The notes under the pieces: model-generated
What the model was told of the DNA's origin: nothing
Database searches by the model: none
The model's input: only the letters and a program-made list of their open reading frames with translations
Part shown: positions 57,080 to 64,000 of the stretch, one piece after another
How the letters are laid out: each line of letters starts with the position of its first letter
Numbering within the stretch: the stretch's first letter is position 1
Source: an uncultured Spirochaetota bacterium
GTDB lineage: Bacteria; Spirochaetota; UBA4802; UBA5550
Direction: 5' to 3'
NCBI GenBank assembly: GCA_963827275.1
Contig: CAWHAA010000006.1
Location: 249,144 to 313,143, forward strand
Length of the DNA: 64,000 bases
Program-made: the position numbers and the translations under genes

Positions 57080-57981
57080 TAATATGACAGCTCCAGCATG
57101 CGGTCAAGGGCCTTCCGGGCGGCCTCACGTACTTCCGGCGCTACCGTTACGACCGTTTTCTCTTCCTGGAGCCCGCGCAGCAGCACCGGGAGCGTTATCT
57201 TTTTCATGTTGGGGCATATAAATGAGCCGGCTGCAGGTATATATTCTATGTGGGGCGCGACGCTCTTCAGCTTGTGGATCATCCCTATTTCGGTCCCGAC
57301 GATAATCTTTTTCCTGTCAGTGGATTGCACGAATCTGACCATGTGACCGGTGGAGAGGACCTCGTCCGCCATGTCGATCACGTCCGGCCTGCACTCGGGA
57401 TGCACCATGACCAGGGCGTCCGGGTGCTGTTTTTTAACAGCGGCAAGGTCTTCCACCGTGAATTTTTCATGGGTAGGGCAAAACCCCTTCCAGGCGATGA
57501 TCTTCTTCTTGGTAAAGCGCTGCACATAGCTCCCGAGGTTTTTGTCCGGAAGGAAAAGGATGGTGTCAGCCTCGACCCGTTCAACGATTTTAAGCGCATT
57601 CGACGAGGTGCAGATGACGTCGGACTGCGCCTTGACCGCCGCGGTCGAATTGATATAGGTAACGACCATGGCGCCCGGATGCTCTCTCCTGAGCCTGATT
57701 ACGTCTTCGGCATCAACCATGTCGGCCATGGGGCAGCCTGCCGTCGGGTCCGGGATGATCACTTTTTTTTGCGGAGAGAGAATGGCGGCCGACTCGGCCA
57801 TGAAATGAACACCGCAGAACACGATCATGGACGCGTCGTTTTTCGCCGCGATCTGCGAAAGTTCAAGCGAATCGCCGCTGAAATCCGCCACGTCCTGCAC
57901 CTCGCCCACCTGGTAGTTGTGGGCAAGTATGATGGCATTTTTTTCCTTTGCCAGCTTTTTAATCTGTTCGGATATATTCAT
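57079..57981 (-). CDS. nadA: Quinolinate synthase
   Basis: LAHNYQ, CGVHFMAE, GCPMA, YINS, HPEC and CPNMK motifs. Confidence 0.97.
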   Translation of the reverse strand: MNISEQIKKLAKEKNAIILAHNYQVGEVQDVADFSGDSLELSQIAAKNDASMIVFCGVHFMAESAAILSPQKKVIIPDPTAGCPMADMVDAEDVIRLRREHPGAMVVTYINSTAAVKAQSDVICTSSNALKIVERVEADTILFLPDKNLGSYVQRFTKKKIIAWKGFCPTHEKFTVEDLAAVKKQHPDALVMVHPECRPDVIDMADEVLSTGHMVRFVQSTDRKKIIVGTEIGMIHKLKSVAPHIEYIPAAGSFICPNMKKITLPVLLRGLQEEKTVVTVAPEVREAARKALDRMLELSY

Positions 57982-58179
57982 CTCGCGGCCATTTTATAAT
58001 TTTATAAAAGTAACATTTTACGGCAATGGTCATTTTTTTTGATCGACAGTTATCAGTTTGTTTATAGTATTGTCGAGACATAATAAATTATCAACATAAA
58101 AATAGGCTGGAAAAACAAATTTTTCTAAAAAATAATTGACACCATTTATATGGGCAATCAAGTTACCTGAGAAATATAT

Positions 58180-58732
58180 TCCCCTGTAGCTCAGTCGGTA
58201 GAGTCCCGACAAGGTCGGGATTAACCACTGGACGAAGGTGAATGATGATGTGAATATTCCCCTGTAGCTCAGTCGGTAGAGTCCCGACAAGGTCGGGATT
58301 AACCACTGGACGAAGGTGAATGATGATGTGAATATTCCCCTGTAGCTCAGTCGGTAGAGTCCCGACAAGGTCGGGATTAACCACTGGAATCGAAGGTGAA
58401 TGATGATGTTGAGCATATTCCCCTGTAGCTCAGTCGGTAGAGTCCCGACAAGGTCGGGATTAACCACTGGACGAAGGTGAATGATGATGTGAATATTCCC
58501 CTGTAGCTCAGTCGGTAGAGTCCCGACAAGGTCGGGATTAACCACTGGACGAAGGTGAATGATGATGTGAATATTCCCCTGTAGCTCAGTCGGTAGAGTC
58601 CCGACAAGGTCGGGATTAACCACTGGATCGAAGGTGAATGATGATGTGAATATTCCCCTGTAGCTCAGTCGGTAGAGTCCCGACAAGGTCGGGATTAACC
58701 ACTGGATCGAAGGTGAATGATGATGTGAATAT
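58180..58732 (+). repeat. Seven tandem ~78-bp tRNA-Asn-derived units with a hairpin replacing the 5' anticodon arm
   Basis: Units start at 58180, 58258, 58336, 58419, 58497, 58575 and 58654. Consensus TCCCCTGTAGCTCAGTCGGTAGAG-TCCCGACAAGGTCGGGA-TTAACCACTGG-A(T)CGAAGGTGAATGATGATGTGAATAT. Confidence 0.97.
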
Positions 58733-58805
58733 TCCCCTGTAGCTCAGTCGGTAGAGCAAGTGGCTGTTAACCACTGGGTCGTAGGTTCGAGTCCTACCGG
58801 GGGAG
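58733..58805 (+). tRNA. tRNA-Asn(GTT), intact
   Basis: TCCCCTG/CGGGGGA acceptor stem, GTGG-CTGTTAA-CCAC anticodon arm and GTAGG-TTCGAGT-CCTAC T arm. Confidence 0.96.
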
Positions 58806-58812
58806 CATCCCT

Positions 58813-58843
58813 AAAGCAACGATCAATGATTGTTGCTTTTTTT
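58813..58843 (+). terminator. Intrinsic terminator between tRNA-Asn and the GIY-YIG gene
   Basis: AAAGCAACGATC/GATTGTTGCTTT stem followed by a T run. Confidence 0.75.
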
Positions 58844-58849
58844 ATTCCA

Positions 58850-59113
58850 ATGAAACAATATTACACCTACATCCTGCAATCTGAATCAACAGGCAAATAC
58901 TACATTGGCCACAGCCATGACCTGGAACAACGCATATTGCAGCACAATACCCATTCTTTCTCAGGCTCAGTTTCAACGAAAAGACTTATGGGCCCATGGA
59001 AACTGGTTTTTCAGGAATCTTATGATACGCGTTCAGAAGCGATGGACCGTGAAAAACAGATCAAGTCATGGAAAAGTAAACAAGCAATTCAAAGGCTGAT
59101 AGACAGTCGGTAG
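58850..59113 (+). CDS. Stand-alone GIY-YIG nuclease (87 aa)
   Basis: YTYIL...YYIGHS.DLEQRILQHN, GPWKLV and EAMDREKQIK (catalytic Tyr/Arg/His/Glu pattern). Confidence 0.92.
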   Translation: MKQYYTYILQSESTGKYYIGHSHDLEQRILQHNTHSFSGSVSTKRLMGPWKLVFQESYDTRSEAMDREKQIKSWKSKQAIQRLIDSR

Positions 59114-59171
59114 AGTCCCGACGCAGTCGGGATTAACCACTGGGTCGCAGGTTCGAGTCCTACCGGGGGAG
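59104..59171 (+). pseudogene. 5'-truncated, hairpin-substituted copy of tRNA-Asn
   Basis: CAGTCGGTAGAG-TCCCGACGCAGTCGGGA-TTAACCACTGGGTCGCAGGTTCGAGTCCTACCGGGGGAG; overlaps the GIY-YIG stop codon. Confidence 0.92.
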
Positions 59172-59296
59172 CATGGGCGCTTTTCGAACTCCGGAAAGCG
59201 CCTTTTTTATTTACCGACCATTATTGTAGCGATTATTGACAAAATGGTTGGTTCGAATACTGTCTTCCCGCTACATTACGATAAGACTCGAACTTC
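59163..59296 (+). repeat. Cassette-boundary repeat copy 0 (tRNA 3' end, terminator and module B)
   Basis: CCGGGGGAGCATGGGCGCTTTTCGAACTCCGGAAAGCGCCTTTTTT...CCGACCATT...AATGGTTGGTTCGAATACTGTCTTCCCG...GATAAGACTCGAACT. Confidence 0.9.
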
Positions 59297-59381
59297 ATAA
59301 TTTTTTCGGCAAGTATACCCTATTAGCACAAGGCGGCAATCCATCCCCCATTTCACAAATCAAGTAACATTGAAATAGTAA

Positions 59382-59419
59382 TTGACAGTCACATACATTA
59401 TGCATATATTATATGTATG
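59382..59419 (+). promoter_or_regulatory. Promoter/operator of TA cassette 1
   Basis: TTGACA-17 nt-TATATT with overlapping CATACAT/ATGTATG inverted repeat; ATG lies 6 nt after the -10 box. Confidence 0.65.
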
Positions 59420-59686
59420 CATAATTTTTCAAAGCATAGTCTGAATAGACTCGATGAGCGCAAATTTTCCAAGGAATCGATAGAATCAATCCTCAACAAA
59501 GAAGTTGATGTTGTTATTTACCCGAGCACGAGGGATGAAGACATTGACCTCTATTTCGGGAAATACGTAGGCATGTATATACTCGTTGTTTATAACCGTC
59601 AAACTTCAACTATCGTGACTGTCAGAAATATGAGGAAGAAGGAAAAAGAAATTTTCAATGAGGTGATGAGATATGAAAAAGAATAA
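59417..59686 (+). CDS. Putative toxin, DUF4258/BrnT-like
   Basis: FSKHSLNRLDER...ILVVY...IVTVR pattern; overlaps the downstream antitoxin-like gene. Confidence 0.65.
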   Translation: MHNFSKHSLNRLDERKFSKESIESILNKEVDVVIYPSTRDEDIDLYFGKYVGMYILVVYNRQTSTIVTVRNMRKKEKEIFNEVMRYEKE

Positions 59687-59951
59687 ACAGATTGATGCTT
59701 CATATTACGATAAAACTGATTTGTCCGGCATCATGATGCAAGCCGACAGAAAAAAGAAAGTATACAAAGCCAAAACAAAACGGATCACCATGAACATCAC
59801 ACACGAAGCCTACGAAGACGCCCATGATCTTGATCGGTTTATGGGAATGGGCTATCAGAACGTATTAAAAACTGCAATGGTTATGGGTTTGAAAGATCTT
59901 CATACTATCGTTCTGAGAGAAAAGAAGAAGAAACGGCAGACTGAAAATTGA
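59673..59951 (+). CDS. Putative antitoxin, CopG/BrnA-like ribbon-helix-helix
   Basis: YYDKTDLS, TKRITMNI strand and GMGYQNVLK helix. Confidence 0.65.
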   Translation: MKKNKQIDASYYDKTDLSGIMMQADRKKKVYKAKTKRITMNITHEAYEDAHDLDRFMGMGYQNVLKTAMVMGLKDLHTIVLREKKKKRQTEN

Positions 59952-59960
59952 CAATCACTA

Positions 59961-60162
59961 TTCCACCATCCAGATTATGAAATCCAGCAGGATATCATCG
60001 ACAACCTGGTTCGAATACTGTCTTCCCGTGGGAGCATGGGCGCTTTTCGAACTTCGGAAAGCGCCTTTTTATTTTCCGACCATTATTGCATCAAATATTT
60101 ACAAAATGGTTGGTTCGAATACTGTCTTCCCACAGCATTACGATAAGACTCGAACTCCTTTA
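59961..60162 (+). repeat. Cassette-boundary repeat copy 1 (modules A and B)
   Basis: TTCCACCA...AAATCCAGCAGGATATCATCGACAACCTGGTTCGAATACTGTCTTCCCGTGGGAGCATGGGCGC..., then terminator and module B. Confidence 0.93.
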
Positions 60163-60205
60163 TAGCCATCCATATCAAGCATTTTTCTATTGACCTTTTT
60201 GTATA

Positions 60206-60240
60206 TTTTTAATATCTTGACATTGTAAAGATATTAAAAA
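60206..60240. promoter_or_regulatory. Palindromic operator upstream of mqsR
   Basis: TTTTTAATATCTT-N9-AAGATATTAAAAA perfect 13-bp arms, overlapping a TTGACC-17 nt-TATCTT promoter. Confidence 0.7.
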
Positions 60241-60542
60241 TGGATAAATTCAAAGCACATTATTCACTGTTGCGGGTAAAGGTCCTGGTCAAAGAGGGTC
60301 GATATCGTATTACCGCTTCAGCCATGAAAAGCGCCTTCGAGGATTTTTCACTATTATCAGAAGATCTTGCTGAATGGGTGCTCAGGCTTGAAGCATCGGA
60401 CTTATACAAGTCAATGACGAGCCATTTTGATACAACCTTGTGGCAGGACGTTTATCACAAAAAGATTATTACCAGAATAGCCTATATTAAACTTCAAATT
60501 CTTGATGATGAAACGGTAATAATCTCATTCAAGGAGAAATGA
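60240..60542 (+). CDS. mqsR: MqsR-family mRNA interferase toxin
   Basis: HYSL, ITASA, YKSMTS...WQDVY, YIKLQ and IISFKEK motifs. Confidence 0.88.
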   Translation: MDKFKAHYSLLRVKVLVKEGRYRITASAMKSAFEDFSLLSEDLAEWVLRLEASDLYKSMTSHFDTTLWQDVYHKKIITRIAYIKLQILDDETVIISFKEK

Positions 60543-60543
60543 C

Positions 60544-60969
60544 ATGAAAGATAAAAAATGGATTGATTGCCCTTCCTGTGGGTCGAAAGGATCCATGAAA
60601 TACAAAAAAGGCATGTCGGAAACATACCGCAACCCCGGATATGAACCGATAACCGTCACCAACCTTGACGGATATTTCTGCTCTGCCTGCGGTGAAGGGA
60701 TATACAGCATTAAATCGAGTAAAATCATAACATCGAAACTGACAGATGAAAAAGCGCGCCAGGACTCAAAACGGGTCGTGGCCTCTGACCTCATTGATGT
60801 TGATTCGGTTGCGAAAAAGCTTTCGGTGACCAGGCAGCGAGTGCACCAGATGATGGATGAAGGTAAAATCTCATATGTGTATGTCGGGAAGCACAGATTC
60901 CCGGTCAGGGATAATGAAAGCTCGTATAAGAAGTTGAAGAAAAGAATACATACGATAGCACATAATTGA
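60544..60969 (+). CDS. MqsA/YgiT-type zinc-finger antitoxin with C-terminal HTH
   Basis: CPSC...CSACGEG zinc finger and VAKKLSVTRQRVHQM HTH. Confidence 0.8.
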   Translation: MKDKKWIDCPSCGSKGSMKYKKGMSETYRNPGYEPITVTNLDGYFCSACGEGIYSIKSSKIITSKLTDEKARQDSKRVVASDLIDVDSVAKKLSVTRQRVHQMMDEGKISYVYVGKHRFPVRDNESSYKKLKKRIHTIAHN

Positions 60970-60981
60970 TTATTTTTATAC

Positions 60982-61094
60982 TTCCACCACCCAAATCATA
61001 AAATCCAGCAGGATATCATCGATAACCTGGTTCGAGTACTGTCTTCCCGTGGGAGCATGGGCGCTTTTCGAACTCCGGGAAGCGCCTTTTTATT
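60982..61094 (+). repeat. Cassette-boundary repeat copy 2 (module A only)
   Basis: Near-identical to 59961-60072; similarity ends after the terminator T run. Confidence 0.93.
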
Positions 61095-61139
61095 CAGATT
61101 AGATTATGTGATGATTTTAATGACTGTATCGGACAGGGA

Positions 61140-61484
61140 TTAGTCTATCAGAGAACGTACTTTTGCGATTAATTCATCCATCGTCTCTTCATTTAAACAA
61201 TCAATGAATTCAGCATTACGAGTTTTCCAATCCAGGCTTTTAATTTGGTCTGAGAGAATTACACCGTTGATTTCGGATCTTGATTGAACAGTAACTTCAA
61301 ATGGGTAACCTTTTACCTTTGACGTTATTGGACAGAAAAGTGCGAGATTTGTTTTGGCATTATATGTCTTGGGAGAAATCACCACTGCCGGTCTTCTCCC
61401 ACGCTGTTCATGCCCTGATTGTGGTGTAAAATCCAGCCACACCATGTCTCCTCGCCCGGGAATATATGATTTTGACTTTACCAT
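61140..61484 (-). CDS. mazF: MazF/PemK toxin
   Basis: RGDMVWLDF.PQSGHEQRGRRPA, CPITS, YPFEV and DQIKSLDW motifs. Confidence 0.95.
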   Translation of the reverse strand: MVKSKSYIPGRGDMVWLDFTPQSGHEQRGRRPAVVISPKTYNAKTNLALFCPITSKVKGYPFEVTVQSRSEINGVILSDQIKSLDWKTRNAEFIDCLNEETMDELIAKVRSLID

Positions 61485-61717
61485 GATTCATTACCGGTTG
61501 AAGCGCCGCTGTCGGTCTCTGAATGGAGATTCGTACGCTTAATGCCCCGGAGCAGGTCATCAAGTTTATATTGTTTTTTTACCGGCTTGACAACCAACGA
61601 TTCATTGGTCACTTTAATATCCGCTACTGTGCCATTAGTAATTCCAGCATCCTTGGCATATGAAGAAGGAATTCGGATAGCCAGGCTATGTCCCCATTTT
61701 TGTACTTTTACTTTCAT
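61478..61717 (-). CDS. mazE: MazE/AbrB antitoxin
   Basis: VQKWGHSLAIRIP and YKLDDLL motifs. Confidence 0.92.
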   Translation of the reverse strand: MKVKVQKWGHSLAIRIPSSYAKDAGITNGTVADIKVTNESLVVKPVKKQYKLDDLLRGIKRTNLHSETDSGASTGNESW

Positions 61718-61824
61718 GGCACTACTCTTTTCTAATGTATCTTCTTTGAATATACATTTTAATCATGGTTGGTCAAGTATTTATTTGTGTTGCTCGTAAA
61801 ATTTATTTTAATTACTATTGAAAA

Positions 61825-62019
61825 TCCAAATCATGAAATCCAGCAGGATATCATCGATAACCTGGTTCGAATACTGTCTTCCCGGGGGAGCATGGGCGCT
61901 TTTCGAACTCCGGGAAGCGCCTTTTTTTTATTTTCCGACCATTTTATGCAATTATTGAAAAAATGGTTGGTTCGAATACTGTCTTCCCGCAGCATTACGA
62001 TAAGACTCGAACTCCTTTA
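61825..62019 (+). repeat. Cassette-boundary repeat copy 3 (modules A and B)
   Basis: Same as copy 1, but retains the tRNA-identical CCGGGGGAGCAT. Confidence 0.93.
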
Positions 62020-62126
62020 ATAACTTTTCATTTAATCCCACTATGAAGACCCTCGATGCGGAGAAAAAGTTCCCAAATTGGGAATTTCTTCTTGACGATG
62101 TTCGTCCCGGACTACTACTTTAACTT

Positions 62127-62429
62127 ATGAGGATAATTGCTAAAAGAACGATTGTCGAATTCTATAAGGACAAGCCGGAGTATTCTGACGCAAAGGGACA
62201 GCTTGAAGCCTGGTACGCTGAGGTTCGATCCGCACACTGGAAAAATCCGTCAGATGTGAAAGCCCTGTACCGAAGCGCCAGCATATTAAAATCCAACCGC
62301 ATTGTTTTTAACATATGCGGAAACAAATATCGATTGATCGTGAAGGTAAATTATCCGGCACAAATCGTTTTTATACGATTCATCGGCACTCACAAGCAAT
62401 ATGATTCAGTCAACGCCGAGGAGATTTAA
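62127..62429 (+). CDS. higB: HigB-family mRNA interferase toxin
   Basis: MRIIAKRT, RIVFNICGNKYRLIV and IRFIGTHKQYD motifs; TTCCCAA-A-TTGGGAA palindrome and TTGACG upstream. Confidence 0.92.
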   Translation: MRIIAKRTIVEFYKDKPEYSDAKGQLEAWYAEVRSAHWKNPSDVKALYRSASILKSNRIVFNICGNKYRLIVKVNYPAQIVFIRFIGTHKQYDSVNAEEI

Positions 62430-62431
62430 TT

Positions 62432-62789
62432 ATGAATATCAAACCGATCAAAAACAAAAAAGACTATGATGGCGCACTTAAAAGAATTGAGTCACTCATG
62501 GATGCAAAACGCAATTCTCCCGATTTTGACGAACTCGAAGTGCTTTCAATACTCGTTGAAAAATATGAAGATGAACACTTCCCTATCAAATCGCCTGATC
62601 CAATTGAATCTATAAAATTCAGAATGGAGCAGATGGGGTTATCCCAAAGTGATCTTGTGCCAGTCATAGGGAGCAGGTCAAAGGTATCAGAAGTGTTATC
62701 CGGGAAAAGAAGCTCTTTCTGTCAGGATGATACGTGCCCTGCACGATACGTTGAAAATTCCGGCTGACGTGCTGATTCAGGTGAAATAA
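62432..62789 (+). CDS. higA: HigA-family HTH antitoxin (apparent frameshift near 62712)
   Basis: IKPIK, LVEKYE, PDPIESIKFRMEQ and SEVLSGKR, continuing in another frame as LSVRMIRALHDTLKIPADVLI. Confidence 0.85.
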
Positions 62790-62800
62790 CCGTCTACATC

Positions 62801-63100
62801 ATGAATATAACAAAAAGAAAACCTGTGCATCCGGGGATCGTGCTTCTTGAAGATGTTATCAAGCCTCTTAATCTGACCATCACCAAGGCTTCTGAGTGTA
62901 TGGGAATATCCAGGAAAACCCTATCTGAGCTGGTGCATGGTCATTGTGTACTAACGCCCGAAATGGCCGTTCGAATAGGAGAAGCCACAGGTACCACCCC
63001 GGAAAGCTGGCTGGAAATGCAAAACAGGCTTTCTCTATGGGAAGCCAAACAGCATAAACCCCGAGTCAAACTATTGGCTGATATGTGTTGTGAAGCATGA
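62801..63100 (+). CDS. HigA/VapI-family addiction module antidote (orphan)
   Basis: PVHPGIVL, ISRKTLSEL, TPEMAVR and ESWLEMQ motifs. Confidence 0.88.
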   Translation: MNITKRKPVHPGIVLLEDVIKPLNLTITKASECMGISRKTLSELVHGHCVLTPEMAVRIGEATGTTPESWLEMQNRLSLWEAKQHKPRVKLLADMCCEA

Positions 63101-63139
63101 TAGATTTTAATCCTGTTTAGTATCCCACCATCCACATCA

Positions 63140-64000
63140 CCCCCGCCGTATCCCACCCGACGCAGCCCGACCCGGCGAGGACACCCGCCCCTGGCCCGTG
63201 GTCCTGCTCACCGCACTGGGACTGGCTGGCGGTGATTCCCCCTGATCGCCGTCATCGGCATGCTTCTGGGGACTGGATCGCCCGGGACCTCGGCGACTGC
63301 CTGATCGGGGGCCTGATCCTGGCCGGGGCCCTGGTCACCCTGCGCTCCCGAGGCCTGCCCCTGTTCGTGGAGCAGCTTGCCGTCCCGGCACTGCTGGTGG
63401 CTGGGAGCCTGGGCTTCGCCGTGGGGCGCGACCTGCCGAACGCCCTGGCGGCAGTAGCTCGGGGCCCTCGCACTGGCGCTGGCGGCGGCCCTGCCGGCCT
63501 GGTTGGGGTCCTCTTGGGGGCGGCGGCGGCCAGCCTGCTGACACTCGCCCTGATTCTGGCCCTGGAGGCCCGGACTGAGCCTTTGATGGCTCTGTGGGAG
63601 GGTCGGCATGCGGGCTGGGTCGCCCTGCACTGGCCCCTGGGGCCTGGCTGATCGGGCTCTGGGCTCAGCGGAATCTGCTGGGGCAGGGGGCGACCGCGGG
63701 CGCGGCCTCCGCCTCTGAGGCCATGGAGCCGGCTGGCTCCTGGCCGTCCTCGCCGGGCTCGCCCTGCACTCGGGCATGACCATGCTGGTGGGTGCGAGCA
63801 TCGATCCCATGCTTCGGGACCTGGCACAGGGGCTGAACGGGCGCCGCGGTTGGCTGGGCCTTCCCCTGGGCGCCGGCGGGATCGACCGTGCTGGTCTTGG
63901 CCGCGACCCTGTGGGGCGCCCGCGCCTGGCCTGGCCTGGGCCGGCCCTGGGTCCTGGGGGTCGGGGTCGGCATGGCCGCGCTCGCCTGGAGCAATGCGTG
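63140..64000 (+). other. Very GC-rich segment encoding frameshifted fragments of a membrane protein (DUF4401-like, from memory); probably foreign or chimeric sequence
   Basis: Abrupt composition shift; fragments RPWPVVLLTALG and LPLFVEQLAVPALLV lie in different frames. Confidence 0.5.

Follow-up and report, generated by a model that had tools for sequence, protein, structure and literature searches.

Hairpin-Plugged tRNA-Asn Copies beside a Small GIY-YIG Nuclease Gene: Probable Gene-Less Ends of a Selfish DNA Element in a Spirochaetota Genome

The window analysed here comprises 64,000 nucleotides from an uncultured Spirochaetota bacterium (GenBank assembly GCA_963827275.1, contig CAWHAA010000006.1, positions 249,144 to 313,143 of the forward strand); all positions given below count from its first letter. 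On its plus strand, seven gene-less tandem units (58180..58732) stand directly ahead of an intact tRNA-Asn gene and a small GIY-YIG nuclease gene, each unit being a copy of the first part of tRNA-Asn plugged by a 17-nt hairpin. On balance, we favour the view that the units are the tandem left ends, devoid of the gene, of a DNA element that is likely selfish and sits within the tRNA-Asn anticodon arm. Its nuclease is predicted to bind the hairpin when the DNA is single-stranded and to nick beside it, and host recombination via tRNA homology would rearrange the pieces.

The tRNA-Asn Locus

The units start at 58180, 58258, 58336, 58419, 58497, 58575 and 58654 and have lengths of 78, 78, 83, 78, 78, 79 and 79 bp. 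Each is composed of tRNA positions 1–24, the hairpin, positions 35–45, an eroded stretch of positions 46–54 and a spacer of 18–22 nt. In unit 1 the hairpin (58204..58220, plus strand) exhibits a 7-bp stem and a 3-nt loop, and identical hairpins begin at 58282, 58360, 58443, 58521, 58599 and 58678 on the same strand in units 2–7 according to the pattern match. The hairpin pattern occurs eight times in the window, compared to zero matches in 100/100 shuffles. Coordinates and anatomy given in an earlier note, made from the letters of the window, could thereby be verified: all seven units of 78–83 bp match tRNA-Asn positions 1–24 exactly, and the 17-nt hairpin swapped in stands for positions 25–34, after which positions 35–45 are exact again. 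The degenerate variable loop/T-stem form described there, ATCGAAGGT, is limited to the last two units, 6 and 7 (unit 3 contains an additional A), whereas units 1, 2, 4 and 5 read ACGAAGGT. In register as the eighth unit, as had been stated, follows the intact tRNA-Asn(GTT) gene (58733..58806, plus strand; ARAGORN call, Rfam RF00005 with 70.7 bits), the sole tRNA-Asn among 45 tRNA calls in a genome that is 92 % complete. The inventory of seven upstream hairpins was right as well, but an eighth one behind the GIY-YIG gene (59116–59132) had been overlooked, and it alters the interpretation.

The array exists. A 106-base contig of the public run X3 equals 58493–58598 across a unit junction without any difference, at a word depth of 83.9 compared to 33.5 for the flank (about 2.5-fold), and contigs leading from the flank into unit 1 occur in runs X1, X3 and X7 from three studies. 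The copy number of seven is taken from the assembly, as none of the short-read contigs reaches across the whole array; the sample sequenced in the best run may also be the one behind the assembly. A contig of X1 equals 58779–59175, that is the nuclease cassette, again without difference; its depth is 15.9 versus 34.5 for the flank. The cassette may be carried by part of the X1 population, contig depth being no measure of the share of cells.

A −35 hexamer TTGACA of the host tRNA-Asn promoter lies at 58136..58141 (plus strand), and the host's own leader continues up to 58179. This hexamer, already pointed out in the earlier note, is the conserved tRNA promoter of empty relatives, with the same spacing to the tRNA start in G009, G014, G016, G008, G027 and G021; in G001 it likewise stands ahead of the first unit. 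Between 58180 and 58850 no promoter-like site was found. Since the only called tRNA-Asn sits behind the units on the same promoter, transcription almost certainly runs through the units, which then form a long leader of the tRNA. The co-transcription formerly considered plausible thus gains support from the sequence context, and the unit RNA itself is likely a by-product. Among the public runs searched, no RNA run was listed as containing the stretch, and run X20 contained unrelated tRNA pieces only.

The working tRNA has a unit spacer in front and a terminator unlike that of the host behind. This terminator-like hairpin (58813..58845, plus strand) between tRNA and nuclease gene is part of the inserted block; it differs from the terminators of the empty relatives and resembles the one before the nuclease in locus L033. 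The nuclease gene P0001 (58850..59113, plus strand; 87 residues) ends in a stop codon formed by D-loop positions 20–22 of the downstream, right-hand dead tRNA copy (59100..59174, plus strand). This copy consists of a D-arm remnant, the eighth hairpin with the loop GCA instead of AAG, and the whole 3′ half of the tRNA (59133–59174, 41/42 identical). The following tRNA terminator (59175..59210, plus strand) predates the insertion and is located directly behind an intact tRNA in G011, without a nuclease there. The block runs from the first to the last hairpin, in place of tRNA positions 25–34 of the empty relatives. To its left stand the host leader and tRNA positions 1–24, to its right positions 35–76 and the earlier terminator, and inside lie an intact spare tRNA with foreign leader and terminator as well as the nuclease gene. 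The latter is the only ORF between the hairpins, and no integrase gene was found inside the block. As the leader and terminator bounding the block flank a plain tRNA-Asn in the empty relatives, a hairpin-bounded block has in effect taken the place of positions 25–34. That the spacer is a copy of the host leader was rejected at this locus, where agreement is confined to the last 4–5 bases.

P0001 matches Pfam PF01541 (E 3e-18, residues 3–77 of 87) as sole Pfam family, and Y7, Y18, G20, R28, H32 and E68 are invariant in an alignment with 36 homologues (n = 37). The structure model shows a single domain (pLDDT 86), and the nearest solved structures to the modelled fold are UPF0213 proteins and Slx1; NCBIfam TIGR01453 gives 21.7 bits versus a cut-off of 56. 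No DNA-binding domain such as NUMOD3 or a separate C-terminal part was found in P0001 outside the 87-residue core. A search with PADLOC gave no match below E 0.009, PHROGs weak homing-endonuclease matches only, and the nearest nuclease relatives come from records labelled Leptospirales. Judged by profile and model, P0001 is a DNase-fold protein and no RNase of the ToxN, CptN or TenpN type. The dN/dS values of 0.04–0.45 (median about 0.15, 12 disjoint pairs) indicate that the gene is under purifying selection; of 73 near-full-length copies, which had been selected for their coverage of the profile, a single one contains a stop codon.

Neighbouring Cassettes and Contig End

Downstream, at 59204–63129, a row of toxin-antitoxin genes is found (an unnamed 89/92-aa pair, MqsR/MqsA, MazE/PemK-MazF, HigB/HigA-like plus HigA). 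Between the cassettes lies a repeat of 110–200 bp, the last part of which is a degenerate 3′ end of a tRNA followed by a terminator, and the same cassettes occur in other orders in G007, G009, G010, G011, G015 and run contigs. A recombinase-like ORF stands directly behind tRNA-Asn in G009 and G007. The row looks like a shuffled cassette array that is independent of the hairpin element. In genome G000, a second MazEF and a nucleotidyltransferase-like pair were recognized by reading of ORFs (C10:774–3636), and C10 may continue the cassette array. The same cassette design is seen at a second tRNA: at C5:457098–458110 of G000, tRNA-Trp is followed by a PIN-like toxin-antitoxin pair (ORF reading) and a related junction repeat, which ends in a degenerate tRNA-Trp 3′ end. 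The HigA-like ORF of the window (62432–62767, 111 aa) has an end unlike that of the 118-aa copy in G015; with run X3 being one base short at 62714, this points towards a frameshift or a sequence error. The stretch 63130–64000 exhibits a GC content of 0.72–0.76 versus about 0.55 for the genome and matches nothing else in the genome. Positions 63232–63600 are covered by no run, and an X3 contig leads from 63129 into another cassette repeat. This end of the contig is probably misjoined.

Empty, Filled and Decayed Alleles

For comparison, 40 relatives were used and 20 loci were read. Empty alleles consisting of promoter, short leader, single tRNA-Asn and terminator occur in G009, G014, G016 and G008. 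G001 carries an array of its own up to the contig end, with different loop and spacer, and another of its contigs opens with the end of a nuclease 67 % identical to P0001. One decayed unit each, with a spacer related to that of the window, is present in G002 and G013, where no match to P0001 was found in genomes 88 % and 94 % complete. The arrays of G001, L027 and L033 are independent of that in the window. The number of upstream units ranges from 0 to 7, nuclease presence is patchy, with loss and decay within the genus, and the junction pattern occurs in 12 of 122 genomes of the class, compared to 0 matches of the control. In loci L004 (G011), L010 (G031) and L011 (G025), inserts of 50–60 bp with other inverted repeats are located in the tRNA-Asn leader, with no nuclease at the locus. 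The insert of G011 resembles the G001 spacer at its end and could thus represent a unit in decay.

Hairpin and Nuclease Families

The junction pattern was found in at least 121 metagenome loci, and with 13 from the class search 134 loci were analysed. The sets of loci share some members and include close relatives, and the counts given here are therefore not independent events. In viral contigs the DNA pattern of hairpin and junction had 0 matches, and neither a carrier nor an excised circle of the element was found. At least 500 bases on both sides are available for 50 of the 134 loci; tRNA-Asn occurs in 41 of these, the GIY-YIG gene in 30 and both in 23. A unit stands upstream of an intact tRNA in 60 loci, the window included, with the gene right behind the tRNA in 30, and at least 19 unit-plus-tRNA loci lack the nuclease gene despite at least 500 downstream bases. 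Units differ from their own tRNA by a mean of 2.3 mismatches in 35 nt, compared to 11.4 for other tRNAs, and this low mismatch indicates that they copy the resident tRNA, which is the best or joint best match in 48 of the 60 loci. On the 3′ side the match fades after 6–15 bases. Lineages differ in their spacers; what they have in common is the hairpin alone, without the remainder of the repeat.

In locus L178, two left-hand units still carry the nuclease gene, and the interrupted copies there represent another allele than the intact tRNA; L105 has six gene-less right-hand units. Taken together, both ends exist with and without the gene. The spacer, which reads ATG ATG ATG TGA, may be a collapsed nuclease ORF, an attractive idea given L178. 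Within a locus, the left hairpin equals the right one in only 5 of 18 cases, and the two differ in the window (AAG versus GCA). Such differences suggest that insertion of the block probably took more than a single step.

A check for covariance, proposed in the earlier note for homologous arrays, was carried out with 100 distinct hairpins, in which the first five pairs are largely fixed by the search pattern. Stem pairs 6 and 7 are Watson–Crick in 90/100 and 76/96 of them, compared to means of 45.7 and 55.0 and maxima of 62 and 68 in shuffles, which ignore relatedness. The two pairs covary, in accordance with RNA and single-stranded DNA alike, and the loop of 2–5 nt is free to vary. G-T versus A-C pairs (9 vs 6) were uninformative with respect to a preference for one strand or for RNA. 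ViennaRNA gives a plain hairpin that is stable as RNA (z about −2 to −2.5), and no Rfam family other than tRNA was found. Extra hairpins in the D-loop and T-arm of dead copies amount to 23 in 44.7 kb near units versus 20 in 190.7 kb farther off, about 5 times the density, with 7 of 30 rows set aside as imperfect ordinary units. A REP-like genome-wide repeat was ruled out, as 8 hairpins lie outside the locus compared to 10.3 expected from an order-3 Markov model.

When P0001 and its 36-homologue alignment were searched against the genome collection, at least 542 relatives were obtained among the first 600 candidate stretches, and the best 80 were kept. Among these best 80 loci, 65 show an ARAGORN call within 600 bp, and after removal of hairpin-bearing miscalls an intact tRNA remains within 700 bp in 64 (Val, Ala, Asn, Asp, Pro, Ser, Met, Gly and others). 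The nuclease gene is located downstream of the tRNA in 50 of the 64 and upstream in 14, and a hairpin replaces the anticodon arm by a strict rule in 44. Nine of the 16 tRNA-less loci have under 500 bases upstream; at least 6 of the 80 lack a tRNA yet have long flanks. Where the gene is downstream and at least 500 bases upstream are available (46 loci), upstream units number none in 22, one in 11 and two or more in 13, and a hairpin by rule is absent in 9. Counterparts of the array are thus common beside homologous nucleases, which bears out the link between array and nuclease drawn earlier, and in many phyla the parts are found again in either order, whether or not the gene is present.

In the commonest junction the hairpin replaces the whole arm (27–43) and has the same length as the arm; in the type of the window it replaces 25–34, and in some Asp, Gly and Pro loci it is located in the T-arm. 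Because of this equal length, and because the natural anticodon arms of some target tRNAs look like the hairpin, the latter may descend from the anticodon arm. With 2 changes among 45 labelled rows, the 25–34 junction occurs in just two supported clades; one of them unites Spirochaetota and Desulfobacterota and thus points to transfer. Arrays of two or more upstream units, by contrast, are spread over the tree and require 9 changes among 40 rows. As far as can be read from 86 alignment columns, with 25 of 80 inner forks open, no shuffle and clades that partly follow host taxonomy, junction geometry follows the protein tree. A supported clade of Patescibacteria nucleases (L054, L063, L064, L074, L102) has no tRNA nearby; two of its members show other hairpins, and the target of this clade may be tRNA-free.

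Origin of the Units

According to the explanation favoured here, P0001 would bind the hairpin in single-stranded DNA, be it at a replication fork, in the transcription bubble behind the tRNA promoter or in incoming DNA, and is predicted to nick the DNA beside it, by analogy with Ssn enzymes at NTS hairpins. Repair through the 24-bp and 42-bp tRNA homologies would insert, duplicate or collapse pieces, and outcomes lacking an intact tRNA-Asn would die. Unequal crossover or slippage on the tRNA repeats would multiply the gene-less left unit and shift the copy number (0 to 7), while the terminator ahead of the nuclease gene would keep expression low. The last option of the earlier note, DNA products of cutting and repair, is in accordance with this best explanation and supported by the sequence comparison. 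Against it stands that a nick 5′ of each hairpin alone leaves the hairpin at both ends unexplained.

A wider reading is put forward more tentatively, as a possibility that we would not yet call probable. An 80–95 residue nuclease together with a hairpin of 17 nt, the latter probably an anticodon arm that has been zipped shut, would constitute an undescribed cross-phylum class of integrase-free mobile elements. These would write hairpins into chosen tRNA arms, move as a hairpin-bounded cassette with a tRNA of their own for rescue and give rise to non-autonomous arrays like the one in the window. The proteins of each clade would recognize a tRNA-plus-hairpin junction particular to that clade, and the family as a whole would offer a large natural collection of minimal, site-specific nucleases for single strands.

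Among the alternatives, classical homing survives best, but it appears unlikely. The nuclease would then cut the intact tRNA-Asn gene of an empty allele as double-stranded DNA, the hairpin would be an immunity mark, and the upstream units would be repair scars that copied the hairpin and kept a spare gene. The right-hand copy with D-arm, hairpin and 3′ half would make a perfect repair donor, empty alleles are common, with the pattern in just 12 of 122 genomes of the class, and the intact tRNA of L178 differs in allele from the interrupted copies. Moreover, SegB homes via tRNA-gene cutting with a preference for tRNA-Asn according to its description (PMC2330249). However, an intact identical target stands beside the gene in 64 of the best 80 loci, P0001 lacks a DNA-binding domain beyond its 87-residue core, unlike SegB and I-TevI, and an immunity mark requires no paired stem, yet the stem covaries.

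Alternatively, the host could keep nuclease and dead copies as a domesticated guard of an insertion hotspot, which cuts or absorbs incoming DNA aimed at tRNA-Asn in the way that SsnA limits transformation. Purifying selection on the nuclease gene would be in accordance with such a role, as would the fact that tRNA-Asn is a hotspot in the genus, with recombinase-like islands and shuffled toxin-antitoxin cassettes behind it; a restriction of transforming DNA by SsnA is described in PMC11893778. A host function is nevertheless difficult to reconcile with the patchy presence, loss and decay of the gene within the genus and with the clade of Spirochaetota and Desulfobacterota, which points to transfer. 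In addition, G060 possesses a unit and still has an island-like gene behind its tRNA, and PADLOC recognized nothing below E 0.009. We regard this guard role as improbable.

By analogy with type III toxin-antitoxin loci, the transcribed units could function as RNA, be it as antitoxins, guides or decoys of tRNA, but this is improbable. The earlier note had based its parallel to ToxIN on the layout of promoter, repeats, terminator and nuclease gene. This order is present, but the intact tRNA gene lies between array and terminator. The units must be co-transcribed with the tRNA, the hairpin is stable as RNA at the above z of about −2 to −2.5, its covariation suits RNA as well as single-stranded DNA, and the right-hand copy could act as RNA partner, which is compatible with the counts of upstream units. 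The parallel nevertheless breaks down: P0001 has a GIY-YIG DNase fold and is no ToxN-type RNase, 22 of 46 nuclease loci have no upstream unit, and units persist or decay without the nuclease, as at least 19 loci with unit and tRNA have no such gene in a downstream stretch of 500 bases or longer. Furthermore, spacers differ and only the hairpin is shared between lineages, a hairpin is also located downstream of the gene, the extra hairpins wreck a tRNA-like fold, and Rfam gives tRNA only. This uncoupling of array and nuclease, the unconserved spacers and the non-ToxN protein together make the type III reading fail.

That the array is an assembly or basecalling artefact, as the misjoined look of the contig end (63130–64000) and the indels of 1–5 nt separating the units from one another might suggest, has a negligible probability, since the unit junction is kept in short-read contigs of other studies and related as well as independent arrays occur in many genomes.

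Significance

If the favoured explanation is true, the hairpin-plus-mini-nuclease principle of Ssn/NTS extends to a second, very widespread group (at least 542 relatives among the first 600 candidates) that inhabits essential tRNA genes without killing them. The element would explain a common source of pseudo-tRNA calls and of assembly breaks at tRNA genes, and suggests what the many genes annotated as 'putative endonuclease' might do. The locus is a clean test case, with empty, filled and decayed alleles in one genus and an 87-residue protein with intact active site, and the predicted substrate of P0001 fits one oligonucleotide.

Comparison with Known Systems

Genomic islands that integrate at tRNA genes insert into the gene, restore it and leave a partial duplicate at the far end. 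The locus described here shares the insertion in a restored tRNA gene and the partial gene duplicate at the far end. It differs by the absence of an integrase, the duplication of both 5′ and 3′ parts, a hairpin in every dead copy and a size of a few hundred bases.

Type III toxin-antitoxin loci are similar in the order of promoter, tandem repeats, terminator and nuclease gene. According to PMC5086642, the toxin of ToxIN, CptIN and TenpIN is an endoribonuclease that cuts its own pseudoknotted repeats (34–36 nt in ToxIN) and cannot stand without them. Here, in contrast, a DNase-fold protein, 78-nt tRNA-derived repeats and an essential tRNA in between are found, with no obligate pairing. As P0001 belongs to none of these toxin families and shows no obligate pairing with a conserved repeat, membership of type III was rejected. 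ViennaRNA folds a plain hairpin, by a method blind to pseudoknots, and the free loop of 2–5 nt argues against a pseudoknot.

SegB of phages T4/T6 is, like P0001, encoded by a free-standing GIY-YIG gene beside tRNA genes, is expressed from the tRNA transcript and drives tandem amplification; its cutting leads to amplification of a segment of tRNA plus nuclease, according to PMC2330249 and PMC13096335, the latter for the amplification. SegB is distinguished by a C-terminal DNA-binding part, a double-stranded cut at the T-arm and a phage-borne gene, and neither a signature hairpin nor dead tRNA copies appear.

Closest in predicted mode of action are the Ssn proteins. According to PMC11893778, SsnA (cd10448) cuts single-stranded DNA just upstream of its own hairpin and ignores RNA and double-stranded DNA, and a mobile-element origin of NTS-ssnA-NTS is proposed (Chenal et al. 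2025). Shared features with that description (PMC11893778) are a single-domain GIY-YIG protein of about 90 residues, oriented hairpins on both sides and a TCCCG/CGGGA core. Seven oriented hairpins flank the P0001 gene upstream and one downstream, and its 87 residues form a single domain with Y7, Y18 and E68. These residues are inferred to be equivalent to Y6, Y17 and E64 of SsnA, by position and by alignment to the SRM-flanked protein of locus L025. In contrast to Ssn, the hairpin here has no SRM flanks, occupies the site of the anticodon arm within tRNA sequence and shows no dispersal across the genome. The SRM consensus had 0 matches in 57900–63200 of the window and near 0 of 80 related genes, whereas the positive control L025 gave 4. 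The 81 tRNA-type rows split from the L025 protein (99/93), a flagged long branch with 36 % identity that is the sole stand-in for Ssn. Owing to the SRM mismatch and this separation, the Ssn analogy is one of architecture only.

Other small GIY-YIG genes in the genus (L023, L024, L025, L026) each have palindromic flanking repeats of their own, of which only those of L025 fit SRM; the repeat types of L023, L024 and L026 may represent further Ssn-like groups. As distant GIY-YIG genes are also flanked by repeats, pairing with hairpins seems to be a habit of such small proteins. A search of the literature, covering mainly the main texts of open-access papers, gave no description of a tRNA-nesting hairpin-nuclease element. 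The main text of PMC11893778 never mentions tRNA, and its tables may list such proteins. The element is widespread and apparently undescribed. It is for now best called a variant of the Ssn/homing kind, which would work most like Ssn/NTS and shares its niche with SegB.
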